DNA of 64,000 nucleotides, from contig LURR01000012.1 of NCBI GenBank assembly GCA_001628485.1, forward strand, positions 146,563-210,562, in the 5' to 3' direction. This document shows, one piece after another, positions 16,179 through 38,100 of the stretch; the first letter of the stretch is position 1, and the number at the start of each line of letters is the position of its first letter. The stretch comes from Marine group II euryarchaeote REDSEA-S11_B3N4 (GTDB lineage Archaea > Thermoplasmatota > Poseidoniia > Poseidoniales > Thalassarchaeaceae). The notes under the pieces were generated by a model that did no database searches, was not told the origin of the DNA, and worked only from the letters and a program-made list of their open reading frames with translations. A program made the translations under genes and the position numbers.

Positions 16179-17152
16179 CTCACCAGTAACTTCCTACACG
16201 CCCTTTTCGTTAAGACCTTCACCATTTTCCTTCTATAAGACGGGGAGAACCAAGTGTTCTGGACAGGCTTTACTGCCTTTCTAATCGACTCTGATAGAAT
16301 TTCGACGGTCTCAACTCCACTCCAATTCTCGAGTGCGCCCTTCGCTTCTTCTGAATGCAAGCTAGGAATAGACTCTAGGCCAGTGGTTGCTACTCTAAGA
16401 TTTGATGGGCCATCTCCCTCATCTCCTTTCCAGAGAACAGCTACGCCCGCTTCAGGGAAGTCCCAGGATTCACGCTGCCTCAACTTCTGATAGTCTCCGC
16501 TCCAATCCGATGCATCTTCAGGTAGAGTGATGTGGGTGACCATTTCTCCAGGTTCGAGTACATTTCTGGTCATTCCGTCTAGCTTGAAGAAATCACATAG
16601 TGACATGGAGCGCTTTCCTTTGGGTGATGCTAGGTGGATTGTGGCACCTAGGCACATCAGTACAGGAGCCAAATCTGCTTGATAGGTTGCAACGCACAGC
16701 GTGTTTTGGTTCGGAATTACTCTACAATCGGCCCCAGTGCCACAATCACATTTGTGACACCAGTCAATTGACTCCCTCCATGTTTCCGACTGATTGATCC
16801 AGTAGCACCTAGTATCCAGGCATATATTTCCTCCAACTGTCCCGGACCTTCTGATCATCACACTCGCAATTGAGTCTGCTGCCTTGGCTAACACAGGGTG
16901 GGTCGACTCGTGCTCGGCTAACTCGTTGATACTGACCATAGCGCCAATACTTTCCTCGCTTATCTCTCGCAGCTCGGCTATGGAAGAAAGCGAGATAACG
17001 TGCCTCTTCACATTGATGTGCCACTTGTAATTTGGAAGCAGATCGGTTCCTCCAGCGACCCAGTCGAACTCCTCTCCAGATTCTGAAAGCTCTCTAGACA
17101 TTGTTAGCGCCTCATCCAAACTCTTCGGCGAAAGAACACGGAAGGGGGGCAT
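16175..17152 (-). CDS. Molybdenum hydroxylase FAD-binding medium subunit (CoxM/XdhB family)
   Basis: VAGGTDLLPNYKWHINVKRHVISLSSIAELREI (FAD-binding PCMH-type). Start trimmed to MPPFRV to remove overlap with the large-subunit gene; the long ORF runs to 17197. Confidence 0.8.
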   Translation of the reverse strand: MPPFRVLSPKSLDEALTMSRELSESGEEFDWVAGGTDLLPNYKWHINVKRHVISLSSIAELREISEESIGAMVSINELAEHESTHPVLAKAADSIASVMIRRSGTVGGNICLDTRCYWINQSETWRESIDWCHKCDCGTGADCRVIPNQNTLCVATYQADLAPVLMCLGATIHLASPKGKRSMSLCDFFKLDGMTRNVLEPGEMVTHITLPEDASDWSGDYQKLRQRESWDFPEAGVAVLWKGDEGDGPSNLRVATTGLESIPSLHSEEAKGALENWSGVETVEILSESIRKAVKPVQNTWFSPSYRRKMVKVLTKRACRKLLVS

Positions 17153-17154
17153 CC

Positions 17155-19944
17155 TCATTTTTGACCCTCCGCATGCCTTCTTTCTGTATGCTTCCAAGCA
17201 CTACCTGCGAGTCTAGGAGACTTCAGATATTCCTCCTCAGGAGTTACTCTCACTGACCACCTAGGGTCAACTTCGTCCGGAGGAATTGTGGGGTCCAGAC
17301 CGAATAATGCACCATTGTGATAATCCGACCTACCCTCATCCAGTCTCCTATCCTTGTCCCTTATCCGATGTTCCTTAGCTCTGTTTTCTAGAACTCCTTG
17401 GAGAGATGAGTGTTGAAGGGATGGGCTAGGGAGATTATTCGGATCCGATACCTCTTCCTCTCTGCAACGCTTCTCGATCATTTTGTGCACCTTCTCTGGA
17501 GACATCGGTAACTCAGAGGTCCTGATCCCTATTGCATCGTAGACGGCGTTGCAAACAGAAGGCAGAATCGGAAGAAGAGGGCCTTCTCCGGCCTCTTTAG
17601 CTCCAAATGGACCCTCTGGATCGTTCGATTCCACTATTATGGGAATTACTTCCGGCATTTCGTGAATGCTCGGGATCTTGTAATCTAGGAGATCGGGATT
17701 CATCAGATTTCCACTTCTACCATATCTCATCTCTTCCGATAGAACTTGGCCCATGCCCATGTGGCAAGACCCGATTATCTGCCCCTTTACAGCCAATGGG
17801 TTCAGAGCCTTTCCACAGTCGTGAGCTGCCCATACCTTGTCAACTTTGATTTGACCAGTTTCCACATCGACAGAAACTTCTGTCACATAAGCAGAGAAAG
17901 AGTATGCTGGAGCTAGTCCAGCCGCTGCTCCCTTGTGCATTTTCCCCATAGGGGGGGTCCTGTATGCCCCAGAGGCGACTAAAGCTCCCCTGTCTTCTTG
18001 CGATTTGTGAAGAGCTTCGAGGTAGGATACCCCAACCGCTGGGTCCTTTTTTAGGAAGATTCTCCTATCCCCAATAATCAATCCGCTTCTTTCCGCCCCT
18101 GTGATTTCAACCGTAGCATCTAGCAACTCCTCCCTGATTTGCATGGCTGCCGAAATAGCCGCGTTGGCGTTCATGAAGGTCACTCTGGAGGAGTAAGAGC
18201 CCAAGTCCACCGGAGAGGTATCAGAATCTCTCGATTTCACTCTGATCATATCTAGCGGGAGCCCGAGTACCTCTGCCACGGATTGGGCTACGACTGTATC
18301 AGAACCTTGCCCTATGTCTGCGGCTCCTGTGTGGATTGTGACCCCGCCATCCATATCGATCTTCAGATGAACGGTTGCATGTGGGAACTTATTCGGATCC
18401 CAGTGGATGGGTAGGCCACTTCCTGAAATGAAGAAACCACATCCAATGCCGATTCCCTTCCCAAGAGGAAGTTTACGGAATTTTTTATTCCAGCCACTTT
18501 CTTCTCTAACCCTCTCTAGACATTCCCTCATCCCTATGCTTGTTACTCTGAATCCGGTAATTGTGGCCGAGTGCGGAGGGAGTAGATTCGCTAAACGCAA
18601 TGATATCGGGTCTACGCTCAACTTCTCCGCCAAGTCATCCAGGCCTACTTCTACTGCGCATCTAGAATTCACCGCTCCATGGCCCCGCATAGCCCCACTG
18701 GCAGGCTTGTTCGTCCAAACCCTGGCTCCAGTGTAGTGGAAAGCACCAATTTCGTAGGGAGCAGTGTGGAGGACCCCGTTGTAGTAGGTTGTCACGTGTC
18801 CGAAAGAGGCGAATGCCCCCCCATCTATCAGAGCATCAGTCTCGATTCCACATATTCTCCCTTCGTCATCAGCATGTAGGTTCATCTCAATCCGCGAAGG
18901 ATGGCGACCTCTATTTACCCAGTAAACCTCTTCTCTATCGAAAGTTATGCGAACAGGTTTTCCGGACTTTCTTGCGAGAATCGCAGCACACATTTCGTGT
19001 GGGAATGGGTCCGACTTTCCACCGAAACCTCCTCCAACAAAGGTCCTATGCACATTGATTTGATGCATTGGAATCTCCAATACATCAGCTAGCGCCCTGT
19101 GTACGTAGTGTGGAACCTGCTGGGGAGTATACAGCGTAAGCCTTCCAGTTGGGTCCCAGTGTGCCACTACTGCGTGTGGCTCAGTGAATGCGTGGTTAAC
19201 TCCGGCGAAAATCCAATTCTTTTTATGGCTAGCAACAGAGTTTTCTATCATTCCTTCTACGTCTCCGAATTCTTGGAAAACCCTCTTTTGGACGTTTGAC
19301 TCTCCTATGTGGTAGTCCCCTCTGTCATGTATGGGCTCTCCACTGTCTTCGAGCCCTTCCCTCATGTCATGAATCGGATCAATCAACTCATACTCCACTT
19401 GGATCAGCCTCTCCGCCTCCCTAGCCGTAGCCTCGTCAATTGCTGCAACGCATGCAACAAGATCGCCTGCATGCCGAACCTTCTCTACAGCCATCGCGTG
19501 CTCGTCCTTTGTCACAGGTAGAACTCCGAACCTATTCTTCGCATCATCGCCGGTTGCAACTGCAACTACACCGGGCAACTCTAGGGCCTTAGTGCAATCA
19601 ATAGATAGAACTCTGGCATAGTGATGAGGCGAACGAACAATCCGTCCAATCAACTCTCCAGGTAGCCTGACATCGTCTCCGTAATGCGCTTGCCCCGTTA
19701 CCTTCCAAGAACTATCCACAAGCGCAGTAGATTTGCCAACCACTCTACCACTAATGAGTTCGTCGTGCCTATGTGGGCCCCATTCCTGAGCAAGCTTCCC
19801 TCCCTGGGATTCAGGAATCATTTCTTGATCCGTAGACTCTGAGAATTTTCCTTTCCCTCCAGACCCAGGTCTGGAAAAGGGGAGTTTTCCGGGTTGTTGC
19901 CTATACCCCACTATCTCCTTAGGAGCATCCTCTTTTTCAGACAT
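17155..19944 (-). CDS. Xanthine dehydrogenase / CO-dehydrogenase-family molybdopterin-binding large subunit (CoxL/XdhA-like, generic or form-II type), with N- and C-terminal extensions
   Basis: 929 aa. Aldehyde-oxidase/XDH 'hammerhead' and MoCo-binding regions (GGGFGGK, SGAMRGHGAVNS). No form-I CODH VAYRCSFR motif. ~125-aa charged C-terminal tail beyond the usual end. Confidence 0.85.
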   Translation of the reverse strand: MSEKEDAPKEIVGYRQQPGKLPFSRPGSGGKGKFSESTDQEMIPESQGGKLAQEWGPHRHDELISGRVVGKSTALVDSSWKVTGQAHYGDDVRLPGELIGRIVRSPHHYARVLSIDCTKALELPGVVAVATGDDAKNRFGVLPVTKDEHAMAVEKVRHAGDLVACVAAIDEATAREAERLIQVEYELIDPIHDMREGLEDSGEPIHDRGDYHIGESNVQKRVFQEFGDVEGMIENSVASHKKNWIFAGVNHAFTEPHAVVAHWDPTGRLTLYTPQQVPHYVHRALADVLEIPMHQINVHRTFVGGGFGGKSDPFPHEMCAAILARKSGKPVRITFDREEVYWVNRGRHPSRIEMNLHADDEGRICGIETDALIDGGAFASFGHVTTYYNGVLHTAPYEIGAFHYTGARVWTNKPASGAMRGHGAVNSRCAVEVGLDDLAEKLSVDPISLRLANLLPPHSATITGFRVTSIGMRECLERVREESGWNKKFRKLPLGKGIGIGCGFFISGSGLPIHWDPNKFPHATVHLKIDMDGGVTIHTGAADIGQGSDTVVAQSVAEVLGLPLDMIRVKSRDSDTSPVDLGSYSSRVTFMNANAAISAAMQIREELLDATVEITGAERSGLIIGDRRIFLKKDPAVGVSYLEALHKSQEDRGALVASGAYRTPPMGKMHKGAAAGLAPAYSFSAYVTEVSVDVETGQIKVDKVWAAHDCGKALNPLAVKGQIIGSCHMGMGQVLSEEMRYGRSGNLMNPDLLDYKIPSIHEMPEVIPIIVESNDPEGPFGAKEAGEGPLLPILPSVCNAVYDAIGIRTSELPMSPEKVHKMIEKRCREEEVSDPNNLPSPSLQHSSLQGVLENRAKEHRIRDKDRRLDEGRSDYHNGALFGLDPTIPPDEVDPRWSVRVTPEEEYLKSPRLAGSAWKHTERRHAEGQK

Positions 19945-20577
19945 CTAATCTCCCCCGAAACCTGGATGAGGGTCACTCTTTGATAGGGTCGAGTCGCTCA
20001 CTGCTTGGCCCGAGACTAGGATATCCGAAGCGGCTTTGACTGAGTCAACTATCTGCTGGAATCCAGTACAACGACATAGGTTGCCCTCTATTGCTTGCTT
20101 TATCTCCTGGTCGTTAGGTTTGCTGTTTTCAGACAGTAATGCCGAAATTACCACCAAGAAACCGGGCGTGCAGAACCCGCATTGACTGCCACCACACTCC
20201 GCGAATGTCTGCTGTATCGGATGGAGATGATGACCATCAGCTAATCCTTCTACTGTTGTGATATCGGCTTGCTCAGTATCTACAGCTAGAGTAAGACAAG
20301 ACAACCTCGGCTCTCCATTGATTAGTACAGAACAGCATCCACATGTCCCCATATCGCATCCACGTTTGGTCCCGAGGCTCCCGACACGGTCCCTAAGCAC
20401 GTCAAGAAGAATCGCATTGCTCTCAATAATTATGGATACTTCTTCGTCATTTACTTTGGCATTCCACTCAACCCCATCGGAAGGGGGTAGCATAGGTAGC
20501 CGGAACTGCACCACATTACGACCAATCGAACCCATCCTTTGAGCATTCGGTTCCCCGTGATGTCTATTGGAAATCAT
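19945..20577 (-). CDS. Molybdenum hydroxylase 2Fe-2S small subunit (CoxS/XdhC-iron-sulfur family)
   Basis: Two [2Fe-2S] motifs CDMGTCGCCSV and CGFCTPG...CRCTGFQQIV. Stop abuts the large-subunit start. ~50-aa N-terminal extension, so the true start may be internal. Confidence 0.9.
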   Translation of the reverse strand: MISNRHHGEPNAQRMGSIGRNVVQFRLPMLPPSDGVEWNAKVNDEEVSIIIESNAILLDVLRDRVGSLGTKRGCDMGTCGCCSVLINGEPRLSCLTLAVDTEQADITTVEGLADGHHLHPIQQTFAECGGSQCGFCTPGFLVVISALLSENSKPNDQEIKQAIEGNLCRCTGFQQIVDSVKAASDILVSGQAVSDSTLSKSDPHPGFGGD

Positions 20578-21208
20578 TGACGGCTCTTTTTAGAACCTCA
20601 GACTCGGCCCTCTTCAGATGCTCTCCTGTGGTGCTTCTTGCTATTCCAAGCTCATCAGCGAGTTGCTTCAATGTTACCTCTGCTCCATCTTCGTAGTATC
20701 CTCTATTCACAGCCAGTTCTAGCACTTCTCTCTGCTTTTCTGTTAGGAAATCGAGATCCTTAGAAGATCCGTTCTTCACTGTCTGTACACTAATTGTGTC
20801 TGGTGGCATTACTTCTCTGACTAACTCCAAGAAACTTCGTATGGAGCTTGAAATCCCGAAGATTCTGAACTCCAGGCCGCTCTTAGAATCGATTCCGTAG
20901 GGGGGGTAAACATAGATGTTCGACAACTCTAACGCAGAAAGTGCTAGAGGGTGAGTGCAACGAATGCTAACTAACACGCCGCGCTCATCCTCTTCATGCG
21001 TTTCAATAACATCAAAACTCTCCAAATCCGAGATTTCAGATAGACGCCGTCCTCTGTTAATCCCCAATTCTACCAGTTGGGTAACTCCTTCCTTATCGGT
21101 AGAAAGGTGACCAAGAACCTCTATCCTATGACAAATTTCCATCAGTTTGTCGATCTCATCTATCCCGGAAAGAGAGGAAACCTTCCACCTAAGGAGAACC
21201 TTCCTCAT
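20564..21208 (-). CDS. HTH_10 (bacterio-opsin activator-type) transcriptional regulator
   Basis: C-terminal LTEKQREVLELAVNRGYYEDGAEVTLKQLADELGIARSTTGEHLKRAESEVL is a classic HTH_10 DNA-binding domain. Heads the molybdoenzyme operon. Confidence 0.6.
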   Translation of the reverse strand: MRKVLLRWKVSSLSGIDEIDKLMEICHRIEVLGHLSTDKEGVTQLVELGINRGRRLSEISDLESFDVIETHEEDERGVLVSIRCTHPLALSALELSNIYVYPPYGIDSKSGLEFRIFGISSSIRSFLELVREVMPPDTISVQTVKNGSSKDLDFLTEKQREVLELAVNRGYYEDGAEVTLKQLADELGIARSTTGEHLKRAESEVLKRAVNDFQ

Positions 21209-21244
21209 AGTCTTGGAATCTCTTCTTAATATTTAGAGAACACC

Positions 21245-22459
21245 CTAGTTCCAATATGCTTCCCTAATCTCCTGATTGGACTCCATACAGAGTTCCACAT
21301 CGAAGGGCCTCTGGGCCATCGAACTGCTCCCATTCAGGTGCTCAATGATTGGGAGGACATTGCTTTCGTTCACTACTCCCCATCCAACCTGTGTGCATGG
21401 CGCCATAGGCGAAATTGGAGTTGTTCCCGAAAGTGGGTCCCAACTGGAAAATGAGGGATACCATGCTGAGAGGTTCAAAGCATCTCTGATGTCATCGTTG
21501 GTGAGCGTGAAATTCGATCCGTTCACTATTAGCCCCATCCTATCTATGGGGTCTGCACCTGAGGAAAAATCCCCGAATTCCGATCTTAGAGAGACGAGTA
21601 CTTTGGAGAGCAGTCCTGCGGTCCTTGGCGTTGCAAACGAGGTCCCTGAAGTCTGATGATACCCGTCAATATCGTCATGGTTGGGAAGCATTTGAGTCCA
21701 GTCGGCGGCTATATCGGGGTAAGAACCGCTCATGGTCTCTTTCTGATCGTCATCCTCTTCAGCATAACCCGAAACCCCAATGCTCCACGGAGGTCCGGCC
21801 GTTGAGTCTTGAATGGCAGGAGAAGGAGAGTTATCTGCAGCACCAGTGTGAATCTTCTTTTCTTCAACAACTGCGACTTTCGTGGCATCCTCAATTCCAG
21901 GGACCGGCACCGAAAGTATGGGTCCAAAGCTAGTTGTGATCAAATCCACCAGAGGTTGGTTCGCAGCAGCAAGAACAGCTGCATCACTGAAACCCTCGAC
22001 GAAGAAAATCACCGCTTCCGGGTTCGCGTCAATAACCGCACCTGTTACTGCGGTACCATGCCCATCGCTAGGATCGTCGAGGATTGGTATGTCCGTATTG
22101 TCATCGGGAGTAGTGCCAATTATTCTCGAACCCTTGAACCATACAATGTCGCCGGAACCAATCACGTCCCAGCAATCTTCCCTATCCGATTCGTAGCGCT
22201 CTTCCCAAGTTCCGTTTTTGCTAATTTCACAAACCTTGTTTACTCCTAGTTGATCCAGCAGCCACTGCGGGTAAGACTCGTTCATTGAGAAGTGATTATG
22301 ATACACGTTAATCCCGGTATCGATCGGAGCTACGACACTGAAAGCCCCGAAAGAGTCGTCTACTACGGCAACGTCTTCCTTCTCCTCACTCCCTCCCATA
22401 CATCCGACTAAGCTCGCGGAAATGACCAATATGGAAGTCAGAGCCGACAGAACCTTCAT
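21245..22459 (-). CDS. Subtilisin-like (S8) serine peptidase, lipoprotein
   Basis: Lipoprotein-like N-terminus (hydrophobic signal helix then Cys: LVISASLVGCMGGSE). Catalytic-triad motifs in correct order: APIDTGINVYH (Asp), SDGHGTAVTGAV (His), TSGTSFATPRTAG (Ser). Confidence 0.65.
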   Translation of the reverse strand: MKVLSALTSILVISASLVGCMGGSEEKEDVAVVDDSFGAFSVVAPIDTGINVYHNHFSMNESYPQWLLDQLGVNKVCEISKNGTWEERYESDREDCWDVIGSGDIVWFKGSRIIGTTPDDNTDIPILDDPSDGHGTAVTGAVIDANPEAVIFFVEGFSDAAVLAAANQPLVDLITTSFGPILSVPVPGIEDATKVAVVEEKKIHTGAADNSPSPAIQDSTAGPPWSIGVSGYAEEDDDQKETMSGSYPDIAADWTQMLPNHDDIDGYHQTSGTSFATPRTAGLLSKVLVSLRSEFGDFSSGADPIDRMGLIVNGSNFTLTNDDIRDALNLSAWYPSFSSWDPLSGTTPISPMAPCTQVGWGVVNESNVLPIIEHLNGSSSMAQRPFDVELCMESNQEIREAYWN

Positions 22460-22490
22460 GACTCCCCGAATTTAACACCCAATTTGATAC

Positions 22491-23330
22491 TTAGGTAGCC
22501 CCGTTCTTCCTTTCAAGAGATAGAACTTCTGCACAAACTGCAATTGCAATTTCTTCCGGAGTATCTGCCCCTATATCGAGGCCAATAGGGCACCTTACCG
22601 AGTCTATCAGCCACTTCTCCACCCCACTTTCAATAGCCTTCTTCTCGAAAGCTGACCATTTCTTCTTCGATCCGATAGCCCCAATACGAGGCCTACTTCC
22701 TGCTCTGCGTAATTGTAGTAATCCGACCAGCATCTCTTCATCAACCGACCAATCATGACTCAACAGTAGAATGTCTGAAAAACGAGCCAAAGAATCCTCA
22801 CTTTCGCCCTTGAGAAAATCGTCGACAGATGAACAGAAATTCCCCTCAGAGTTTGGATAACGCTTTTGGTTGCAATATTCCTCTCTGATATCGAATACGC
22901 TATACGGCCATTCCAGAGAATCACACACCCTTGAAATCGAGAGACCAACGTGTCCCCCGCCCGCAATCAAGATGTGAGGTCGCGGGGTAATCACTTCCAT
23001 AGCTACTGTCACCCGTCCCCCGCATAGACTGTCGAGGGCAGATGCCTCTTTTCCTTTGCCATCTCTATTTAGAAGGAATTCCTCAACTTCACCTCCTTTT
23101 TTTCTTAGGTCAGACAAATCCCGGAACAGAATTTCTTGAAGCTCCTTCTCCACCGTTAACTCCAATCCTGCTCCACCGATAGTTCCGAACTTTTCACCCG
23201 AGGAGCTGATCGCTAGCCTCGCTCCTGGTTTCCCAGGAACGCTCCCGCTAGCCCTGACCACCGATGCAATGGCGACTCTTTCTCCAGCCTCTACCCTCTT
23301 GATGGCCCAGTTTAGGACTGCGACGGTCAC
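22491..23330 (-). CDS. xdhC: XdhC/CoxI-family molybdenum cofactor insertion chaperone
   Basis: N-terminal XdhC_CoxI region (VAIASVVRASGSVPGKPGARLAI) and C-terminal Rossmann-like domain (HILIAGGGHVG). Adjacent to the Mo-hydroxylase operon. Confidence 0.75.
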   Translation of the reverse strand: MTVAVLNWAIKRVEAGERVAIASVVRASGSVPGKPGARLAISSSGEKFGTIGGAGLELTVEKELQEILFRDLSDLRKKGGEVEEFLLNRDGKGKEASALDSLCGGRVTVAMEVITPRPHILIAGGGHVGLSISRVCDSLEWPYSVFDIREEYCNQKRYPNSEGNFCSSVDDFLKGESEDSLARFSDILLLSHDWSVDEEMLVGLLQLRRAGSRPRIGAIGSKKKWSAFEKKAIESGVEKWLIDSVRCPIGLDIGADTPEEIAIAVCAEVLSLERKNGAT

Positions 23331-23398
23331 AAAGACCCGTCGGGGTGTCGACCTTTGGAGTTGTGTAGATGTTCAGATACGTTCGAGTACCCTCGGGA

Positions 23399-24709
23399 TT
23401 AGAAAGATACGTCCAGAATCATTAGCGCTAGCCCCAAAATTAGGGCAGGAATAGTTGTATGTAGCGTGGCCCAGAGGCTAGCTAGCCTGTGTCTAACTAA
23501 AAGTGGAAAAAGAGCATCTCCGTCTTGGCTAATCGCATTCGCAGCCAAAGCCGGGAATGAGATCAGGTCCTTTGTGTAGGCGGTAATGGCAATAATCTGA
23601 GGTCCGCAACCGGGTATTAATCCAATGAAAGAAGCGACTACAACCGCAATAATCCCATCACCATACTTGGCTAAGTCTGCTTCGTTGGTCCCCGAGAATA
23701 ACATGGTAAACTCGAAAATCAGGTAAGCAGACATGACCCAGAACGTGACAAATGCAGTTTCACTTGCAGAGTGTATTAATGTCTCTCTCATCGAATAGAG
23801 TTTGTCCCCAATAGAAGCTTCTGTATCGTCACGAATCCAGGTTTTCTGAGACAGATACAGGATTATTGACAAAGTTGTACCTATCAAACCTATCCAAGTT
23901 ATGAAACCATGCAACGTAAATGGGTTATATTTTATCGAAAGCTCAAAATCAGGGTCTTGAGAACTCCAAAAAAGTAACAATACTGCGAATACCAATCCAA
24001 TTGAGGTAACTATCCACCACAGGGTGTAACCTTGGTGAAGAAGGAAATAACCCGGGCCGCTTTCCTCCTCTCTTCCAAGATCATCAAAGACTGTTTGCTT
24101 ATCTTCCGAATCCCCTAATTTGGATATTTCCTGATCCTTCGCCGGCTCGGAACTATGTAACAATCCGCCCAAAGGGCTCTGTGGAGTGATACTCATTCCA
24201 TCTATTAGGTAGCCCCATGTAACTCCTGTCACGAAGGAGATGACATGTACCGCAACTGCGGGAGCCACGAAAGAGGAGTCAGTGAGAGCAGCACCAATCA
24301 AGACGAACGCAGCATCCCCGAGGGTTGCGATCAGAGTGGCTATTACGGTTCCATAGCTGACGAAGCCCCTAGTGTACATTGGCATTATTACAATGGCTCC
24401 GCCACAACCAGGAGTGATGCCCATAATGGCACCGATCACAGGCTGCCATCGCCTTTTCGTTCGAATCACGTCTACAAACCTTCCAGCGGTAACGTACTGC
24501 AACCAACTGAACAGCAGAACCATCGAAGCAACAAATACGGTCACGGCTAGAAAGGCATCTCGCATGCTCACAACTACCACTTCGATTACTTCAGCAGAGG
24601 TTGGCATCACACATTCCACTCCAAGTTTGTATAAATCATTTGACATCTTAGCAAGGAGGAATACGATACTCCATTTTCCCGATTTTGAAATACGACTCAT
24701 CAAACTCAA
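23399..24709 (-). CDS. Polytopic membrane permease with internal duplication and two conserved PGCG motifs (possible metal/metalloid transporter)
   Basis: ≥10 TM segments. Repeated motif GITPGCGGAIVIMPMY / GLIPGCGPQIIAITAY in the two halves, with a hydrophilic acidic loop in the middle. Confidence 0.4.
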   Translation of the reverse strand: MSLMSRISKSGKWSIVFLLAKMSNDLYKLGVECVMPTSAEVIEVVVVSMRDAFLAVTVFVASMVLLFSWLQYVTAGRFVDVIRTKRRWQPVIGAIMGITPGCGGAIVIMPMYTRGFVSYGTVIATLIATLGDAAFVLIGAALTDSSFVAPAVAVHVISFVTGVTWGYLIDGMSITPQSPLGGLLHSSEPAKDQEISKLGDSEDKQTVFDDLGREEESGPGYFLLHQGYTLWWIVTSIGLVFAVLLLFWSSQDPDFELSIKYNPFTLHGFITWIGLIGTTLSIILYLSQKTWIRDDTEASIGDKLYSMRETLIHSASETAFVTFWVMSAYLIFEFTMLFSGTNEADLAKYGDGIIAVVVASFIGLIPGCGPQIIAITAYTKDLISFPALAANAISQDGDALFPLLVRHRLASLWATLHTTIPALILGLALMILDVSF

Positions 24710-24749
24710 TCAGTTCAGAATCCAGGATTAGAAATGGGTAATTTCTGGT

Positions 24750-25346
24750 CTATTCATTGACCAATTTCAGTTTCTCTTGAAGATTAATTATATCCTCTGG
24801 GGTATCTATGTTCAGTTCTAGAAATCTGTCTAGAACCTCGAATCTACTTGTCTCGATTACTTCCCTCAATGGTGAATTTGCCGGACTATTTCTTACCTTG
24901 TCGACATCTTCGAAAGTCAGCACTAGGGGGTGACCGCCCCTGCCTTCCTTCATAGGACAGCAGGTCTCTTCTGAACAAATTAGACGATCCAGCGTGGAAT
25001 CTGAGAATCCCGGTCGATCTACTGGAACAACAAGCAATCTGTAATTGTTTAACCCCGAGGAATCAATACTTTCAATCCCCACTTTCAGAGAGCCTGTTCT
25101 CCCTTCATGTGGATTCCGGTTTAGAATTACATTCACATCGCTCACAGTTTTGGAAATTTCCGCAAAATTTGACTCATTTGCAACTATGGTGATATTTGCC
25201 AACCGACTCGATAATCTTCTTGAAATCCAACTGATGAGTGTCTGAGAACCGACATCAACCAATGCCTTATCCATGCCAAGCCTACTGCTTGAACCAGCCG
25301 CGAGAATCACGCACTCCACACTATCGCTCCTAAAACTCATTAGCAT
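24750..25346 (-). CDS. mocA: Molybdenum cofactor nucleotidyltransferase (MocA/MobA-like)
   Basis: N-terminal VILAAGSSSRLGMDKALV nucleotidyltransferase motif, ~200 aa. Adjacent to xdhC. Confidence 0.8.
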   Translation of the reverse strand: MLMSFRSDSVECVILAAGSSSRLGMDKALVDVGSQTLISWISRRLSSRLANITIVANESNFAEISKTVSDVNVILNRNPHEGRTGSLKVGIESIDSSGLNNYRLLVVPVDRPGFSDSTLDRLICSEETCCPMKEGRGGHPLVLTFEDVDKVRNSPANSPLREVIETSRFEVLDRFLELNIDTPEDIINLQEKLKLVNE

Positions 25347-25352
25347 ATCTCG

Positions 25353-26312
25353 CTAAAATAATCCGTCTAGGAAACCACCGAGATATGTCATGTAGAATAG
25401 GTAAGTTATGATCATCATAGTTCCAATATTTTTGGTGAACTCCTTTCCAGATATGAGCATCCATACCACGAATCCCGATGTTGCCATTACCACTAATATG
25501 TCCCTCTGAAACTCTACATCGACAGGAATCCCACTCCCAACAATACTCGCTATCCCAATTATCCCCATGATGTTCATAACATTGGAACCTAGTACGTTTC
25601 CTACGGCAACCCCTCCTTGCCCCCTAATCCCAGCTACTAGTGTAACAGCCAGTTCGGGCAATGAAGTCCCCAGTGCTACCACGGTCAGACCAATAACGGC
25701 CTCCGAGACCCCGAAAGTCTCAGCAATACCAGTTGATCCAATTACAAGTAACTCAGCACCATACCATATCATCCCACCACCAATGACACAGAAGGGGATA
25801 GCAATGGACATTTTGTTTGGTAGCCATGAGTCTTCGAACTCATACTCATCTTCCGCCGATATTGCAACTGTGTAGGTGTAGTAGTAGTAAATTATCAGAC
25901 ATGTCAACATCACGACGCCCCCTAGAAGGGGAACTTCTCCAAAATAAACGAATATTGCCATGAAGAGAGTGGCTACCATTACTGCCATCGCATCCCTGTT
26001 TACCCCTTTTTCTACGTCAGATTTTGCCCCTAAGACAGCTGCAGCACCCAAGACCAACATCACGTTTGCGACGTTAGAACCTAGGACTCCTCCAACTGCA
26101 ATATTTGGTACGCCACTATCAATAGCCTCAATCGCAACAGCCAGTTCGGGTAGTGATGTTCCAATTGCTACGACTGTGAATCCCACTACCAGGGGGGATA
26201 CGCTTAGGATCTGGGATATCCTTGTAGCTCCTTGAACAAGAGCCTCCCCTCCGAACATTAGCAAAGCAAAACCGATTAGGACGAAACCAACGTCAACTAC
26301 GACCTCATCCAT
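25353..26312 (-). CDS. CaCA-family Na+/Ca2+ (cation/Ca2+) exchanger
   Basis: Two alpha-repeat signatures GTSLPELAVAI and GTSLPELAVTL, ~10 TM. Confidence 0.85.
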   Translation of the reverse strand: MDEVVVDVGFVLIGFALLMFGGEALVQGATRISQILSVSPLVVGFTVVAIGTSLPELAVAIEAIDSGVPNIAVGGVLGSNVANVMLVLGAAAVLGAKSDVEKGVNRDAMAVMVATLFMAIFVYFGEVPLLGGVVMLTCLIIYYYYTYTVAISAEDEYEFEDSWLPNKMSIAIPFCVIGGGMIWYGAELLVIGSTGIAETFGVSEAVIGLTVVALGTSLPELAVTLVAGIRGQGGVAVGNVLGSNVMNIMGIIGIASIVGSGIPVDVEFQRDILVVMATSGFVVWMLISGKEFTKNIGTMMIITYLFYMTYLGGFLDGLF

Positions 26313-26367: not shown

Positions 26368-29286
26368 TCATTTTGTACATGCTCTCTCGATATGCCTTGA
26401 AACTACCTCGACACTTGGTATGGTGTGGTCCTCAAGTGTTGGTGAGAAAGGGACAGGAGTATCCAATGCTCCAATCACTACGGGGGGGGTTTCTAACCTC
26501 CAAAACGACTCTTCGATAATCCTGCTCGAGACTGTATGGCCAAAACCACCAGTCCACTGGGACTCTTGCAGAACGATTAGTCTACCAGTCTTGAGAACCG
26601 AGTTGATACATGTCCCAGAGTCTAAGGGAACGAGAGTTCTCAGATCCACAACTTCGACTTCAATCCCCCTATTCGACACACTCTCTGCTGCATCAAGAGC
26701 AACGTGTACCATGGCACCCCAGGTGACAATTGTGAGATCTGCGCCCCCCCTGACTACTATTGCCTTGCCAATCGAACTATCTCCATTTTCTAGCCTATTC
26801 ATTACAGCCTCTGTATCCACTATTTGATTGATTGATTTGCCCCAGCCAGTTATGCCTCCTCTAAGTCCATACAGCCCAATATGCTCTAGATAGACAACAG
26901 GATCTGGAAGATGGTGTGACTCAATAAGCAGGTCATAAGCATCCTGAGGATTACTTGGAGTCACAATGATCAATCCTGGATCATTTGTAAGCCATGATTC
27001 AATCATGTTAGCATGAAATGGCCCACTCCTAGTCTTCGCTCCTAGTGGAATTCGCACTGTCATAGGTACCTCTGCACCCCATCTCCATCTCAACTGGGCC
27101 GCATTGTTGACTAGAGGGTTCATTGCTAGTGCTGCAAATCCTCCAAACTGTATCTCTGCAAGTGGCCTCATCCCTCCCAGGGCCGCCCCTGTCGCTGAGT
27201 GGATAATTATGGCCTCAGATAATGGCATATCGAGAAGTTTTGATTGATGACCCTTAGCCTTGAGTCCTAGATTCATTCCGAATGCACCTGCTACTTCCAT
27301 ATCCTCGCCCATGAACACCATTTGATCGCCGAATTGGTCTGCAAGTGCTGCCATTCCATTCTGAATCGCTCTACTGTAACTCCAAGAATTGGGAGCATCG
27401 GAGAACTCTATTGAGAGGCCACCAGAATCTAGACTGGTACTCGAATTAGCTCCTGACCCGTCAATTCTCCGTAGTTGCTTCTCGTGACTTGGTGCGTCCG
27501 AGATTGATGTAACTCCTTTGACAACTGAATTTCCCTCCGGCCATTCCATTTTTTCCAATTGGCTCCTGGCTAACTCCACCTTGCCTTCTTCTTCCATCTG
27601 AATGCGGTTGAGTTTTTGTTCTCCCACTCCGAGTTTAATCAATAACTCCCTATGGTTTGGGAGCGGATCTTTCTCGGACCAGTATCGCAGTAACTCCCTA
27701 TCAACATAACCCGGGGGGTTGCCGCTCGATGCTCCAAGATACAAATCATCATGGTGATGAGCGTGCCCACAACCTCTCATTGTTTCCACGTGGATCAGCG
27801 TTGCTCCGCATCCATCCTTGGCGAACTCCTTAGCAACTGCAGTAGATGCATAGAATAGCGCTGGATCAGATCCATCAATAGTCCAGGCGGGGATCCCCAT
27901 CGCATGCCCTTTGTCACCGAATGTCTCTGCTCCTGATTGAGCAGAATTGATTGTATCAAGTGCTATCTGATTATTCTGAATCATGAAGCAAATCGGCAAA
28001 CCACGAACCCCAGCGAAATTCATTGCCTCCCAGAACTCTCCGCTACTGCTACAACCCTCTCCTACAGGGGCTAAGTGGAATCTACTAACTCCTAGCCTAC
28101 TTGCAGCCAGTGCCACTCCCGTGGTTGTTGCACTTGCAATAGGCAATGGTGCAGTAGGAGGCAGGATTCCTTTCTCCCAGTTTCCAATATGCAGGTCTCT
28201 ACCGCCGCTTCCTTGAATTCCACCGTCCATGTAGGACTCTGCCTTGCCCATTTGGGCAGAAAAAACCTCGAGCGGGGTCTGTCCCATTGCAAGTGCTAGG
28301 CCCATATCTCTAATCATTGGGGCTACAATGTCTGCATTGTGACGGTTTTCTTCCGGCAAATCAACTGCACGCGTCATAGCTGTTGCACAAGCCACCACTC
28401 CTTCCTGCCAGGTTGATCTGAAACCCTTTCCACCAAAACTACCTCCATCCGGGGTGGGCAAACCATTCGTAAAGAGGTCCTTCAACTCCTCATCCACTAA
28501 CCTAGTCCGAATCATTCGCCTCTGCCATTCTATTCTATTTTCCACAGTAATCGAAGCATAATGTGCAATTCTTCTCATGCAAAGTGTCAGATCAATTAGC
28601 AGTCTCTCCAATCTCCTTTTTAGGAACACTTCACCCTGCCTCATCGGTATGATTTCTGATTTCACGAGCCCATATAGTTCGGGCTCTAACGTCCTTTCCA
28701 GGTATCTTTCCTCAACTACTCTCATGAATTCCTTAGAGAATTCATGAAACTCTTCCCCGGTCATTTTCTCTTTACATTTCATTGAATCCCAACATTCCGA
28801 AACAGAATTTAGATGCCCATCGTGTCTCTCTGCTACAAATTCTAGCAAACTTTTCTTGGCTCTTTTTGACTTCAGCTTTGATGGAAAAGTCAATGCATTT
28901 GGAGGAATCCACCCTACTCCCCAAATTTTAGGAAAATTAGACTGCAGCTCCTCATTTTCATCATTATTTACGGCTGCGACGGAATCTGCAATAGCACCCT
29001 CATTCCTTCTTCGCGCCTCTTCTTCTAGAGCTGCCCAATCCCCTGGATTCCTTTCCCAAATTTCCACATTTCGCAGTCTACCCTTCCCTGAAGCAGACCT
29101 ATCGAGGGTCGTTCGAACCCTTTTCCCACATCCCGTGCACTTACGATCTAATTTTTTTGACTTATGTGACCTAGTCTTCCAGGTTTGGTGAAGTTGGCAT
29201 TCTGGACACTTCCAAACTCCTACTCTCGCCATATTGTTTTGAATTACGAATGAGCCTAGTACAACAATATTGGCCTGGATTTTCAA
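26368..29286 (-). CDS. Fused TPP-dependent 2-oxoacid dehydrogenase E1 alpha+beta subunits with a ~200-aa N-terminal Zn-ribbon-containing extension
   Basis: N-terminus CPECQ...CTGCGK (Cys4 ribbon). E1-alpha core (GDGATNQG-like GEGCSSSGEFWEAMNFAGVRGLPICFMIQNNQIA; TMRGCGHAHHHDD). E1-beta core (LDMPLSEAIIIHSATGAALGGMRPLAEIQFGGF; C-terminal transketolase-C-like domain). Confidence 0.75.
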   Translation of the reverse strand: MKIQANIVVLGSFVIQNNMARVGVWKCPECQLHQTWKTRSHKSKKLDRKCTGCGKRVRTTLDRSASGKGRLRNVEIWERNPGDWAALEEEARRRNEGAIADSVAAVNNDENEELQSNFPKIWGVGWIPPNALTFPSKLKSKRAKKSLLEFVAERHDGHLNSVSECWDSMKCKEKMTGEEFHEFSKEFMRVVEERYLERTLEPELYGLVKSEIIPMRQGEVFLKRRLERLLIDLTLCMRRIAHYASITVENRIEWQRRMIRTRLVDEELKDLFTNGLPTPDGGSFGGKGFRSTWQEGVVACATAMTRAVDLPEENRHNADIVAPMIRDMGLALAMGQTPLEVFSAQMGKAESYMDGGIQGSGGRDLHIGNWEKGILPPTAPLPIASATTTGVALAASRLGVSRFHLAPVGEGCSSSGEFWEAMNFAGVRGLPICFMIQNNQIALDTINSAQSGAETFGDKGHAMGIPAWTIDGSDPALFYASTAVAKEFAKDGCGATLIHVETMRGCGHAHHHDDLYLGASSGNPPGYVDRELLRYWSEKDPLPNHRELLIKLGVGEQKLNRIQMEEEGKVELARSQLEKMEWPEGNSVVKGVTSISDAPSHEKQLRRIDGSGANSSTSLDSGGLSIEFSDAPNSWSYSRAIQNGMAALADQFGDQMVFMGEDMEVAGAFGMNLGLKAKGHQSKLLDMPLSEAIIIHSATGAALGGMRPLAEIQFGGFAALAMNPLVNNAAQLRWRWGAEVPMTVRIPLGAKTRSGPFHANMIESWLTNDPGLIIVTPSNPQDAYDLLIESHHLPDPVVYLEHIGLYGLRGGITGWGKSINQIVDTEAVMNRLENGDSSIGKAIVVRGGADLTIVTWGAMVHVALDAAESVSNRGIEVEVVDLRTLVPLDSGTCINSVLKTGRLIVLQESQWTGGFGHTVSSRIIEESFWRLETPPVVIGALDTPVPFSPTLEDHTIPSVEVVSRHIERACTK

Positions 29287-29463
29287 ACTTTACCACAATT
29301 AGTAATATTATGTGGTGTTAGATAATTATAGATGGAATTATTACCATAATTAAAAAGGATATTATGTATATATTCACCACATATATTGAATAAATATTAG
29401 ATTAAACAATATTTATGGATAATTACCATAATAAAAAGTCATACTATGATGATATATGCCACA
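29287..29463. repeat. AT-rich (~80% AT) intergenic island with reiterated motifs (ATTACCATAAT(T)AAAAAG x2; CCACA(A/T) x4 including an inverted copy)
   Basis: Direct reading of sequence. Flanking coding DNA is ~50% GC. Lies between two convergently arranged minus-strand genes, upstream of the E1 fusion start. Confidence 0.5.
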
Positions 29464-30630
29464 TTAATATTTGACAACGTTAGGATCTACCTCATCCGAC
29501 CAGGCATTTATACCTCCCAATAGGTTGTAAATCATGCCATTGAACAATCCGGAATCCACAATGAACCTGGCTACGGCATCAGACCTCTGTCCACTTCGGC
29601 AATAAACTACAATATCGCCTTGCGAGGGCAGCTCTTCCAATCTGGAAGGTATTTCTAGATGCATTATTCTAGAATCAGTGCCCTCAATTGACGAGATTTG
29701 TTCTTCATGGGACCTTCTAACATCTAGTAGGAATGGGGCCCAACCCTTATTTCTTCTTTCGGCGAATTCCTTAGCACCTATCTCAGAAAACCCCTTCTCT
29801 TGCTTCTCAGAGAGAGATGTTACCTTTTCTCGATCGGCGTTCAAGGAAAACTCAAGTTTCCTGAAATCCATGGTCAAGGCATCGATTACTAGCAATTCTC
29901 CGGACAGACAGTTTCCAATACCAAGAATGATTTTAATCGCCTCGGTAGCTTGGATAGTTCCGACAATTCCTGGGAGAATTCCAAGAACTCCTGCCTCCGA
30001 GCAATTTGGCGCTAATTCTGGTGGTGGAGGCGATGGAAACAAATCCCGGTAGTTGGGGCCGTCCTTGAAATTGAATGATGAAACCTGTCCCTCAAATCTG
30101 TGAATACTACCAAAAATCCACGGTTTACCCAGAATCTCACATGAGTCACCAATCAGATATCGCGACTCAAAATTGTCTGTACCGTCAATAACCACGTCAT
30201 ATTTGGAAATTATCTCAATCGAATTTTCACTAGTTAGTTTCTCTTCAATTTCCTCTATCACTATATCTGGATTTAACTCAGAAATCCGATTCGATGCAGA
30301 CTTAACTTTCGCACTTCCGATTGAAGAAGTACTGTGAATTATCTGCCTCTGCAAATTCGATGAACTTACTTTATCATTGTCAACAATTCCGATTCTGCCC
30401 ACACCAGCAGCGGCCAAGTACATCAATGCTGGAGATCCAAGACCCCCTGCTCCTACAACAAGAACTGATGATTTCAGCAATTTCTCCTGTCCCTCAGAAC
30501 CAACATCCGGAAGGACCAGGTGTCGAGCATATCTCTCCCTTTGTTCCGGACTAAGATGGCGCGACATTGTCGTTGTGAAAGGGAGTCCAATCAAGGTACC
30601 TTCGGTCCTCAATCTTGCTCTTCCAACCAT
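29464..30630 (-). CDS. moeB: MoeB/ThiF-type E1-like adenylyltransferase fused to a C-terminal rhodanese domain (MOCS3-like sulfur carrier activating enzyme)
   Basis: ThiF nucleotide-binding VLVVGAGGLGSPALMYLAAAGVGRIGIVDNDKV...SNLQRQ. C-terminal rhodanese with active-site VVYCRSGQRS. Confidence 0.85.
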   Translation of the reverse strand: MVGRARLRTEGTLIGLPFTTTMSRHLSPEQRERYARHLVLPDVGSEGQEKLLKSSVLVVGAGGLGSPALMYLAAAGVGRIGIVDNDKVSSSNLQRQIIHSTSSIGSAKVKSASNRISELNPDIVIEEIEEKLTSENSIEIISKYDVVIDGTDNFESRYLIGDSCEILGKPWIFGSIHRFEGQVSSFNFKDGPNYRDLFPSPPPPELAPNCSEAGVLGILPGIVGTIQATEAIKIILGIGNCLSGELLVIDALTMDFRKLEFSLNADREKVTSLSEKQEKGFSEIGAKEFAERRNKGWAPFLLDVRRSHEEQISSIEGTDSRIMHLEIPSRLEELPSQGDIVVYCRSGQRSDAVARFIVDSGLFNGMIYNLLGGINAWSDEVDPNVVKY

Positions 30631-35166: not shown

Positions 35167-38100
35167 ATGGCCGGACGCCGCTCGATGTTTTTGCCCCTGG
35201 CTCTATTGGTCCTAATTGCTCCCATGGCGTCTTCCTCTATCTGGGTGGAAGAAGTACCTAATGGCGGTTATGATGCCGAAGGAAAGTGGGCCCCATCAGT
35301 GGAGTCAGAGATACATTGGAAATGGTGGACACATTGGAGCAGAGACAAGGATTACAACTCCATTGACGACAGACTGGAATGGCTAATTGAGCAACCGGAG
35401 GAAGTCAAGAGGGATTGGTGGAGGCGAGCTCCGGAAGGACATGCCAGGATCTTCGTAGACTACGACCACCACCCAACTGATGCCGATATCTCTGCCTTGG
35501 AGTCACTAGGGGTCGAAGTTACTTTCAGGTTCGGATACCTAAATACTGTCTCAGCCACCTCGCCTGTATCTTCAATATTGGATGAAAATGGGATTAGATC
35601 ACTCAGTGGGGTTGTGATGATTGAGGACCTCGGACTAGCTGAGACAAATATGAACGAGGCCGTGCCAAATATGGCGGTTGACAATGTCTGGAATGACTTC
35701 GGACTAGACGGAACAGGCTCGGTAATTGCGGTTCTCGATACTGGAGTTCGTGGCGACCACGAGGGTCTAAACGACATGGACGACGATCCCTTCACCTGTA
35801 TCGACGACCCTCCGGACCCAGATCCACTGGATCCAGAGCCACAACCAATCCCTTCCGACTGCGATCCGAAGATTATCGCTTTCTTTGATGCCGTTTTCAC
35901 CGATGATGAACAAGATCCCTCCACGTCATACGATTCGGGCACCCATGGCACTCATGTCGCAGGAATTGCTGCCGGCTCGGGAGGGGGGCAGACAGACCCT
36001 GGAACCGGTGAGAGATATGTCGGTGCCGCGCCTGGAGCCTACCTGATAAACATCCTAGGGTGTTGCGATGGCGACATCGAGGATGTGATGCAAGGTGCCC
36101 AGTGGGCCATAGACAATAGGGACAAGTATGGAATCGACATAGTCACCTCTTCTTTGGGGGAACAGCAGTTCGAGGTTCACATCGACAATGACGGGAGCTC
36201 CGCTTGGAGCCGTCAGATGGACATGGTCGTTGAGGCCGGAATCATAACCACCCTCTCTGCGGGTAACGAGTTCGGTGGAGCGACCCTTGCTGGGTGCAAC
36301 ACAATCGACAGCCCGGGTGACGCTGAGCTACCTGTCACAGTGGCTAGCCTGGACAAGGACCTTGGTCTGGCGATTTACAGCAGTCGTGGGTACACCTCGG
36401 ACCTCCGAGTCAAGCCGGATGTCGCTGCTATTGGCTCAAACATAATGGCCCCTGACGCAGCGACTCAGGATGGGTACACGAGCAAGTCGGGCACTAGTAT
36501 GGCCACACCGCTTATGGCCGGAATCGCAGCACTGATGGTGCAAGCGAACCCCGATTTAACGCCGACAGAGTTCAAGGACATAATCTCCGCTCACTCCATT
36601 GAGAGAGATATCCAACTCTTGAACGATCCCGGATTCAACGACTGCAGCCTCCTGGAAACCCGTCCCGACAACGAGTTCGGTTTTGGTCAGGCAGACCCAA
36701 CTGCCTTTGTAGAGGCCGCTGGGAGTATAGACAGATCCCTGAACGTCTCAATGGGAGTCTCCACCCTGCAAGAAATAGGGAATGGTAGCTATGTCACAGG
36801 TACCTCCAGTGGAGCAGCCCCGGGCACTGGCTTGGTAGAGGTTAAGGTAGGCGGAGGCCTTTGGTCGGGAGCTGCCGATTTATCCAAGGACGGGGACTGG
36901 TCATCTTGGAGCATAAAACTAGATCCGCATGAAAAATCTGGGAACTCGACAATTTATGCGAGGTTGGTAGTTTCCGATGACAGCATTTCCCCAGTGGATG
37001 CAAGAAGGGTAATTCTGGTAGATGCCCAATTTTCCGGCTCATCGTCTTCCTCGGGATTGACCAACCTAGGCCCAATCGCCTTCTTCGTACCCTTCCTGCT
37101 AGCAATAGCCCTGGTTCTGTTCGTCGGTAGAAGGGAAGAATGGCTCCAAACCCCGATCTCCCAAAGCGACCAAACTAGCGAAGACGAGATTTCGCACGCA
37201 GAGCCAGAGGATGCATTGTCTTGGTCAGAAAGGATGTGGGAAAACGTGACCGAGCTAGGCAAGGGAGGGGCGATAACCGAGAACCCAATCAAGAGAGTAC
37301 TAACCCTTTGCCTTCTCTACTTCGCCCAAGGCCTCCCGTCGGGTTTCGCAAGCGTGACATTTGCGGCATATCTCGTAGCAAACGGGGTTTCAGTGCCCGA
37401 GATAGCGATTCTGTTCGCAACTGTCTCCCTCCCATGGACCTTCAAGTGGATATGGGGGCCTCTGGTTGACTCGGTTTACATCGAGAAGTATGGTCCTCGA
37501 AGGCAATGGATAGTGTTCGCTCAAACCGGAATGGCACTGACCCTTGGCTCCTTGCTTCTGGTTCCGGACTTGAACGGGCAGATCGATTTAGTTGCTAGAA
37601 TCCTATTCCTCCACAACATATTCTCGTCGTTGCAGGACGTGGCAACCGATGCTCTCGCAGTGGAGGTTCTCGAGCCCGATGAGGTAGCCAGGGTAAACGG
37701 GCTTATGTTCGCCGCAAAGAGGGTCGGAATCATCTTCGGTGGGGCGGTCCTGGGGGTGTTAATCACCAAGATAGGGATATCCGGAGTAATCGCAGCGCAA
37801 TTAGTGATGCTCGCATTCATCATAACGGTGCCACTTTTCATGGTCGAGAAGCCAGGCGTTCAACTGTTCCCATGGTCAAGAACTTCGGTTGACACCGACT
37901 CGCAGGATTCAAGGACCGAATCCGGTGCATTGGTCGCAGAGCCGGTGGAGGACTCAGAAGAGGCCCCATGGGAGGAAGAGGAAGAGTTCAGAGTAGCAAG
38001 AATAGTCGGCTACAGTATTGCCAACAAGCGAGTATCAGTCGCCTCCTTCCTAGCGGTTTCGGGAGCCTGTATCTGGCTGTTCGGCTTCGTGATGGACGTC

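Follow-up and report, generated by a model that had tools for sequence, protein, structure and literature searches.

A fused 2-oxoacid dehydrogenase E1 with a two-module N-terminal extension in Marine Group II archaea

We analyzed a window of 64,000 nucleotides (nt) from the Marine group II euryarchaeote REDSEA-S11_B3N4 (contig LURR01000012.1, positions 146,563 to 210,562); the coordinates below count from the first letter of this window. On the minus strand, at 26368..29232 including the stop codon, lies a complete gene for the E1 component of a 2-oxoacid dehydrogenase, an enzyme that depends on thiamine pyrophosphate (TPP). The gene model is based on the list of open reading frames (ORFs), on Pfam, and on homologs that are full length at 61-93% identity. 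The E1 alpha and E1 beta subunits are joined into one chain, and they are preceded by an N-terminal extension of 229 amino acids. The E1 gene is followed, after 56 nt and on the same strand, by a gene of the CaCA family (Na+/Ca2+ exchangers; 25353..26312, identified by Pfam and synteny), and it is preceded by an AT-rich intergenic region of 231 nt with repeats (29233..29463). A preliminary description of this window had reported both of these flanking features, and both are real.

The fused E1 gene and its protein

All three Pfam domains of an E1 are found on this one chain: E1_dh (E = 3e-34, 118.8 bits), Transket_pyr (E = 1e-18, 68.0 bits), and Transketolase_C (E = 4e-33, 114.3 bits). Each score is above its gathering cut-off (22, 27, and 25.9 bits, respectively). 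Because the three domains lie in a single ORF with no stop between them, alpha and beta are truly fused, as the preliminary description had it. The frame is open throughout every ortholog that we aligned, and alpha and beta form a single chain in all of them. That description also treated the fusion as unusual, which we do not uphold. KEGG has a group for unsplit E1s, K11381 (bkdA, unsplit 2-oxoisovalerate dehydrogenase E1), which is defined by alpha and beta being in a single polypeptide, as they are here, so the fusion itself was already catalogued. The novelty is the two-module N-terminal extension, whose helical domain and zinc ribbon are both undescribed.

The ORF list counts 972 codons for this frame, from a TTG at 29286 (26368..29286, minus strand), and the protein had been described as a chain of 972 amino acids. 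This ORF does exist, but translation almost certainly begins at the ATG at 29232 instead of the TTG, and the protein then has 954 amino acids and begins MARVGVWKCPEC. We place the start there because the orthologs begin just 2-8 residues ahead of the first CxxC in our alignments, and because in the orthologous locus L001 the block that is homologous to the 18 codons upstream of the ATG is out of frame with the gene and closes with a stop codon. These 18 in-frame codons, counted from the TTG (29233..29286, minus strand), are non-coding, given the frame in L001 and the conservation at the DNA level. They include a conserved nucleotide block, GGCCAATATTGTTGTACTA, which is probably a promoter or a 5' leader. 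We number residues by the 954-amino-acid protein.

From the N terminus to the C terminus, the protein has a Cys4 zinc ribbon, a linker, a four-helix module, E1 alpha, another linker, and E1 beta. The ribbon module (residues 1-79; 28996..29232, minus strand) is supported by invariant columns, by the AlphaFold2 model, by a profile-profile alignment (hhalign), by the ratio of nonsynonymous to synonymous substitutions (dN/dS), and by its charge, which is a net +12 across residues 1-62. Five strands are predicted in it, along with a basic GKGRxR segment, an EIWER motif, and a helix LEEExxRRN. The predicted zinc ligands (C9, C12, C32, and C35) vary little or not at all among the orthologs. The model has two CxxC knuckles on beta hairpins (strands at 4-8, 15-19, 27-31, and 38-42) that carry the four cysteines, as in a zinc ribbon, with a predicted local distance difference test (pLDDT) of 82-88. 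The linker that follows (residues 81-108; 28909..28992, minus strand) is variable, with a mean pairwise identity of 35%, and is predicted to be disordered (pLDDT 36-47). The four-helix module (residues 109-229; 28546..28908, minus strand) was identified from alignments and from the AlphaFold model, and it contains the motifs IWGxGWxP, FIAERHDGHL, EIIPRRxGE, and LCLRRIAHY.

The E1 alpha core (residues 230-562; 27547..28545, minus strand) was placed by Pfam E1_dh and by alignment to 1UM9_A and 1W85_A. It is joined to E1 beta by a variable linker (residues 563-620; 27373..27546, minus strand) that has no stop, low model confidence, and lower conservation. E1 beta (residues 621-954; 26371..27372, minus strand; Pfam and alignment to 1W85_B) consists of the pyrimidine-binding domain and the transketolase C-terminal domain. 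Among 31 orthologs, the mean pairwise identity is 0.80-0.81 in the E1 parts, 0.67 in the ribbon, 0.52 in the helical module, and 0.35 in the first linker.

The preliminary description had asked for profile searches and a structure prediction of the N terminus. We found no family in Pfam, NCBIfam, or PHROG that covers the N-terminal 229 or so amino acids. An AlphaFold model of residues 1-227 (pLDDT 75) predicts the ribbon and the four-helix module. The four-helix module has no fold match in the PDB and no Pfam match; the ribbon has weak fold matches to nucleic-acid-associated ribbons. So, as the preliminary description stated, the extension is real and opens with a novel Cys4 ribbon, for which the family libraries have no entry. 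That description gave it as about 200 amino acids with a ribbon and a charged helical region; it consists of two modules with distinct distributions (the helical one in all Marine Group II [MGII] lineages sampled, the ribbon in MGIIb only).

The residues of a working E1 are in place. The TPP motif, whose presence was another check that had been suggested, has the form GEG (391-393), then 26 residues, then NN (420-421). It lies at 27970..28062 (minus strand, residues 391-421) and lines up with the motif in 1W85 and 1UM9. The cofactor-activating glutamate is Glu673 of the beta part, which aligns with beta E59 of the Geobacillus stearothermophilus enzyme (1W85_B). His490 of the alpha part, within GHAHHHDD, corresponds to alpha H271, and His740 of the beta part corresponds to beta H128 (G. 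stearothermophilus numbering). The TPP motif and these three residues are invariant among the orthologs. Both histidines act in the lipoyl-acylation half-reaction of characterized E1s, and the GEG (glutamate) form of the motif is also found in the E1 alpha of branched-chain 2-oxoacid dehydrogenase (BCKDH).

The protein thus shares the three Pfam domains, the TPP motif, the glutamate, both histidines, and a beta C terminus of similar length with the alpha2beta2 E1s of known structure (1W85, pyruvate dehydrogenase [PDH] from G. stearothermophilus; 1UM9 from Thermus thermophilus; and two BCKDHs, 1QS0 from Pseudomonas putida and 1DTW from human). It differs from them in being one chain, in its identity of about 30%, in its 229-amino-acid extension, in not lying beside E2 and E3, and in having no clear subfamily. 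NCBIfam models for PDH/BCKDH-type alpha and beta subunits both match. Their best scores stay under the equivalog cut-offs: 195.6 bits where 321 is required (PDH beta subfamily), and 133.5 bits where 411 is required (PDH alpha). PDH, BCKDH, and acetoin dehydrogenase were not discriminated by NCBIfam, by PDB scores, or by comparison with plasmid-borne E1s, which are split alpha/beta pairs with about 30% identity to the core.

Several lines of evidence show that the ribbon is part of the protein. Compared to the orthologous locus L002, the ribbon has a dN/dS of 0.07 (dS is about 1.1), so the sequence must be translated, and purifying selection on it is strong. In about 30 database clusters, the ortholog appears as a protein of 889-902 amino acids that begins right after the ribbon. 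In the two short versions that we examined (P0058 and P0010), the ribbon is encoded in frame directly upstream, with no stop, and the same is true in the P0132 lineage (61% identity). In L001, the ribbon is preceded by a GTG/TTG start. These comparisons indicate that the ribbon-less versions of 889-902 amino acids are start errors by gene callers. We also note where internal GTG or ATG calls cut off the ribbon: in clusters P0010-P0014, P0058-P0061, and about 20 others; in L001 at about 9830-10000; and in L002 at 5846-6000. An extra internal start may exist and produce an isoform without the ribbon. As a practical matter, about a quarter of the database entries for the fused E1 have a wrong, ribbon-less start.

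The preliminary description would have been refuted by a start at an internal methionine near the E1 alpha core or by a hidden stop. We found neither: a mis-predicted start or a hidden stop is ruled out by the in-frame ribbon in L001, P0058, P0010, and P0132 and by the dN/dS of 0.07. A pseudogene is ruled out by the roughly 80% identity of the core among orthologs and by the invariant catalytic residues.

Distribution and origin of the N-terminal modules

More than 900 database proteins match the fused E1, and the full-length matches have identities between 61% and 93%. A source is named for only a few, and it is Candidatus Poseidoniales, Thalassarchaeaceae, or Thermoplasmatota. By these homologs, the window belongs to a Marine Group II archaeon, most likely of the family Thalassarchaeaceae (MGIIb). 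The list of homologs was filled up by MGII sequences, and the nearest non-MGII relatives of the core fall outside it. When we scanned GTDB for the sequence pattern, with one genome for each species, at least 318 species-level genomes proved to encode a relative. The reference MG-II chromosome, CM001443.1, is one of the best 80, nearly all of which belong to the Poseidoniaceae (MGIIa). Among MGIIb orthologs, the E1 core is about 80% identical.

Sequence and gene order indicate that this gene is the Poseidoniales (Marine Group II) ortholog of MG2_0557, a second E1 with alpha and beta in one polypeptide. Our searches of the literature for the fused E1 or for 2-oxoacid dehydrogenases in MGII were mostly without result. 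The supplement of Damashek et al. 2021 (PMC9723583) includes an annotation of an MGIIb genome, SIMO Bin 19-2, in which gene 1141 is a dehydrogenase E1 component (COG0022+COG1071, ortholog MG2_0557, K11381 bkdA). A CaCA antiporter directly follows gene 1141 (PMC9723583), so it is the same gene as the fused E1 described here. Another contig of that genome carries lipA, E1 alpha (MG2_0839), E1 beta (MG2_0838), E2 (MG2_0837, K09699), E3 (MG2_0836), and lipB (PMC9723583). The eggNOG seed genes MG2_0836-0839, from the MGIIa reference genome, also point to this canonical operon. Since MGII has a split-E1 operon with lipoylation genes, the fused protein is an additional paralog. The gene had been called an orphan, which holds locally, but an operon with E2, E3, lipA, and lipB lies elsewhere in MGII genomes (PMC9723583, eggNOG seeds). 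SIMO Bin 19-2 also has a third large TPP enzyme, gene 363, of about 897 amino acids and with weak transketolase matches, which is labelled aceE/K00163 (PMC9723583); MGII may have three E1-like proteins.

These relationships can be compared to two known systems. K11381 is common in Bacteroidota and others, and an MGIIb ortholog of the fused E1 carries this assignment (PMC9723583). The bacterial E1s of this group have the same single polypeptide; our profile search recovered the helical module and the zinc ribbon from MGII sequences alone. The fusion in MGII was either inherited from bacterial fused genes or arose independently. The other system is the archaeal four-gene operon, which has the order E1alpha-E1beta-E2-E3 in Thermoplasma acidophilum and corresponds to MG2_0836-0839 in MGII. 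It belongs to the same enzyme superfamily and is found in the same phylum, and the MGII operon, with lipA and lipB, is the presumed source of E2 and E3. Our gene differs in being a separate paralog at another locus, fused and extended at its N terminus.

To trace the extension, we compared a HMMER profile of residues 1-229 to 1.8 billion representative proteins. There were only 116 matches, most of which are fragments of the same E1. The others were E1 fragments that have the helical module but not the ribbon, and standalone proteins of 100-180 amino acids that match the ribbon module only. When traced to genomes, the ribbon-less, helix-bearing fragments are MGIIa-type orthologs. For example, the ortholog in CM001443.1 has 871 amino acids, starts with MSQGDLPAIHGSEW, and lies 33 nt after the preceding gene, and the ortholog in Guaymas_26 has 878 amino acids. 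None of 80 MGIIa-type loci has an in-frame CxxC...CxxC upstream, and in MGIIb the whole extension, with its CPxC...CxxC ribbon, is kept in orthologs of as little as 61% identity. So all MGII lineages sampled have the helical module, MGIIb added the ribbon, and the two modules have different histories. Both families have the same CaCA gene downstream but different genes upstream, which marks the 5' end of the gene as a point of rearrangement.

The standalone proteins are clearly related to the ribbon of the E1. By hhalign, the two are homologous over 77 columns (99.8% probability, E = 1.7e-28), and hmmsearch against the whole library recovers the standalone proteins at E-values of 5e-15 to 1e-4. 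They share the pattern M-R-x-G-I-W-x-C-P-x-C, then L-D-R-x-C-x-x-C-G-x-R-x-R, then GRGRxR and E-x-x-x-R-N. Many of the standalone proteins end in an acidic tail, where the E1 has the enzyme. No Pfam or PHROG family covers them. Foldseek against BFVD identified two viral proteins (A0A345N471 and A0A345N4I4; probability 1.00), and a pattern scan of IMG/VR gave no confirmed relative of the standalone family.

The standalone ribbon genes sit on contigs of 4.6-4.9 kb with terminal overlaps, from marine metagenomes (L003, L008/L009, L093-L097). L008 and L009, from independent samples, are rotations of one 4781-bp circle. The circles, of about 4.6-4.8 kb and 36-60% GC, have in common small unannotated ORFs and DNA methylases of the Dam or C5 type. 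PHROGs on them match only a DNA methyltransferase and one unknown family, and tblastn and blastn did not find any of the circles among the INPHARED phages; the IMG/VR pattern scan did not recover them either. They appear to form a family of small viruses or plasmids from marine metagenomes that has not been described. Given the location of the standalone genes on these small circles and the matches in BFVD, the ribbon belongs to a family that is typical of small, uncharacterized circular mobile elements or viruses. The ribbon of the E1 appears to have been recruited from this family in MGIIb, together with a new upstream region.

That upstream region is the AT-rich stretch at 29233..29463 (minus strand), which we scanned for repeated boxes. 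It contains two 46-nt direct repeats (29337-29382 and 29419-29464), TTATGGTAAT boxes, and four WTKTGGYR boxes that start at 29291, 29310, 29375, and 29457. The first two of these are an inverted pair that lies 60-85 nt before the ATG. Four WTKTGGYR boxes within 250 nt, compared to 36 over both strands of the whole window, is the densest cluster in the window, and this density was not reached in any of 5000 shuffles. A stricter pattern, ATRTGGTRA, is not enriched. The blocks with the boxes are conserved in L001 and L002, are weaker in two other loci (one box in L011 and none in L010), and are absent upstream of the ribbon-less (MGIIa) orthologs, where the gap to the preceding gene is just 33-60 nt. 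Rfam has no family that matches the upstream region, so it is not a TPP riboswitch. The conservation and density of the boxes suggest that the array is likely a set of binding sites for a transcription factor (a candidate operator) plus a promoter.

Proposed catalytic partners and possible roles of the extension

We propose that the fused protein is a second E1 that docks on an E2/E3 core shared with the split E1 and is specific for a different 2-oxoacid, and we give this a probability of roughly 0.55. The proposal follows from the conserved TPP site and the two conserved histidines of the lipoyl step, together with the presence of E2, E3, LipA, and LipB elsewhere in the genome. Two chains would form the usual alpha2beta2-like dimer, with TPP and Mg2+ in each active site. 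The enzyme would decarboxylate a 2-oxoacid (the candidates are branched-chain 2-oxoacids or pyruvate) and would then reductively acylate the lipoyl arm of the E2 that the distant canonical operon encodes. Sharing E2 and E3 with the split E1 would widen or divide the substrate range of the complex. The preliminary description had offered either a stand-alone activity or recruitment to a distant E2, and given the canonical operon elsewhere, recruitment is the better of the two.

Under our proposal, the four-helix module would be a docking or assembly element for the extra E1, and this is most plausibly its role by analogy with other E1s. Homodimeric E1p and E1o carry N-terminal E2-binding regions, and the actinobacterial OdhA/Kgd is an E1 that borrows the lipoyl domains of the PDH E2. 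These are functional precedents for an E1 without its own E2 and for N-terminal docking, and we draw on them only as a functional analogy. The Cys4 ribbon of the MGIIb proteins is likely to be regulatory or to be an extra handle for interactions.

Several observations weigh against the shared-core proposal. Across essentially all ORFs of the 64-kb window, Pfam found no lipoyl/E2, E3, or lipoate-ligase domain, which bears out the preliminary description on this point. E2, E3, and lipoylation genes do not adjoin the fused E1 in any of the more than 90 loci that we examined either, so the partnership with E2 rests only on the conserved catalytic residues and on the E2 elsewhere in the genome. The core is just about 30% identical to any characterized E1 and scores under every NCBIfam cut-off, so the substrate and the partner cannot be read from homology. 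Nor can the E2-binding surface be read from the full-length AlphaFold model, which was built from a 31-sequence alignment and is poor (pLDDT 51), and only analogy speaks for docking by the helical module. Finally, gut bacteria are often predicted to have a fused K11381 E1 but no cognate E2 (a PICRUSt2 inference; PMC11815872), which leaves room for a role that is independent of E2.

Some of these observations would fit a different explanation, that the protein is a stand-alone TPP enzyme. It would be a decarboxylase, a carboligase (acyloin synthase), or an oxidoreductase with another acceptor; it would not use a lipoyl-E2; and the N-terminal modules would replace the context of the complex. E2 and E3 never adjoin the gene, the core is highly divergent, many bacteria are predicted to have the fused K11381 without an E2 ortholog (PMC11815872), and the E2 of MGII is already served by a complete split E1. 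Nevertheless, both of the histidines for reductive acylation are strictly conserved, as is the entire C-terminal domain of beta, and it would be surprising for an enzyme that had lost the E2 half-reaction to retain the histidines and this domain. The genome also encodes E2, E3, and the lipoylation enzymes. We consider a stand-alone enzyme unlikely.

Another possibility, which is compatible with either catalytic scenario, is that the MGIIb protein is a trigger enzyme in the manner of PutA or BirA. The basic ribbon would be a putative binder of the upstream WTKTGGYR boxes or of the enzyme's own mRNA, and the E1 would regulate its own expression according to its load of substrate or cofactor. In its fullest form, the MGIIb E1 would have captured a putative DNA- or RNA-binding ribbon from a small circular virus or plasmid, along with an operator-like upstream region, and would sense its own catalytic state to control its own transcription or translation. 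The ribbon has a charge of +12 over 62 residues, its relatives are small mobile-element proteins, and its weak fold matches are to ribbons associated with nucleic acids. The ribbon and the box array co-occur in MGIIb and are both missing from all MGIIa-type loci, and the array, kept in L001 and L002, has no equal in density elsewhere in the window or in any of 5000 shuffles. On the other hand, we did not find an operator motif that is common to the upstream regions of the E1 and of the standalone ribbon genes, and no common repeated motif lies upstream of the latter. The boxes fade in distant MGIIb orthologs that still have the ribbon (one in L011, none in L010). A separate transcription factor could bind the boxes, and basic ribbons also make contacts with proteins. 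Both the trigger-enzyme idea and its fuller form seem quite improbable to us.

Lastly, although about 30 clusters list orthologs without the ribbon, an annotation artefact (a ribbon that is not part of the enzyme because of a wrong start or a separate small ORF, or a stop or frameshift hidden in the fusion) can be dismissed, given the in-frame ribbon upstream in the two examined cases and in the P0132 lineage, the dN/dS of 0.07, and the open frame in all aligned orthologs.

The surrounding genes and the place of the enzyme in Marine Group II

The CaCA gene is the sole neighbor that is conserved in both families: in each locus of MGIIa or MGIIb that we saw, it comes next downstream of the fused E1, with the same orientation. 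The two genes are possibly co-transcribed. In two lineages (L011 and L013), a gene for an acyl-CoA dehydrogenase comes next after E1 and CaCA. This would be compatible with the formation of acyl-CoA from branched-chain substrates, but it is only a hint.

On one flank of the E1 are genes for a ThiF-rhodanese protein, a thioredoxin reductase, and riboflavin genes. On the other flank are CaCA, a MobA-like protein, ArsP_2, XdhC, a subtilase, an HTH_10 regulator, and a CoxSLM-like molybdenum hydroxylase. This order of neighbors is retained in orthologous MGIIb loci.

We also note some other features of the window. Genes related to the molybdenum cofactor surround the E1 (16175-25346 and 29464-30630), with no evident functional link to it. 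They include a CoxS/L/M-like hydroxylase (with a 2Fe-2S subunit, a 929-amino-acid MoCoBD subunit, and FAD_binding_5), XdhC, a MobA-like transferase, and a ThiF/MoeB-rhodanese protein; HTH_10 and the ArsP_2 permease lie within the same intervals. At 35167-39093 (plus strand), a protein of 1308 amino acids fuses a subtilase (Peptidase_S8) to an MFS/BT1/Acatn-type transporter, which is an unusual combination of protease and transporter. L001 has an equivalent fusion of 1248 amino acids, and the homolog in L011 (892 amino acids) is the transporter only. Five ORFs of 258-536 amino acids have no Pfam family (E <= 1e-3/1e-4): 50342-51760, 13505-15115, 39340-40299, and 10150-11076 on the minus strand, and 44587-45450 on the plus strand.

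Poseidoniales are uncultured and are among the most abundant archaea of the surface ocean, and their oxidation of 2-oxoacids from amino acids and sugars is inferred only from annotation. Every sampled lineage has two E1s, one split and in an operon, the other fused and elsewhere in the genome, so metabolic models of these organisms can be refined. This raises the question of which substrate each E1 uses and whether one E2/E3 core serves both. Through the ribbon, a gene of core metabolism is also tied to small circular elements of a family that has yet to be studied. If the trigger-enzyme explanation with a captured ribbon were true, then this E1 would be the first case of a 2-oxoacid dehydrogenase component that carries a nucleic-acid-binding regulator within its own chain, and a protein from a mobile element would have been domesticated into the core metabolism of abundant marine archaea. 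More generally, if the ribbon is regulatory or is involved in docking, it would be a new way to plug an extra E1 into a 2-oxoacid dehydrogenase complex or to control the complex.

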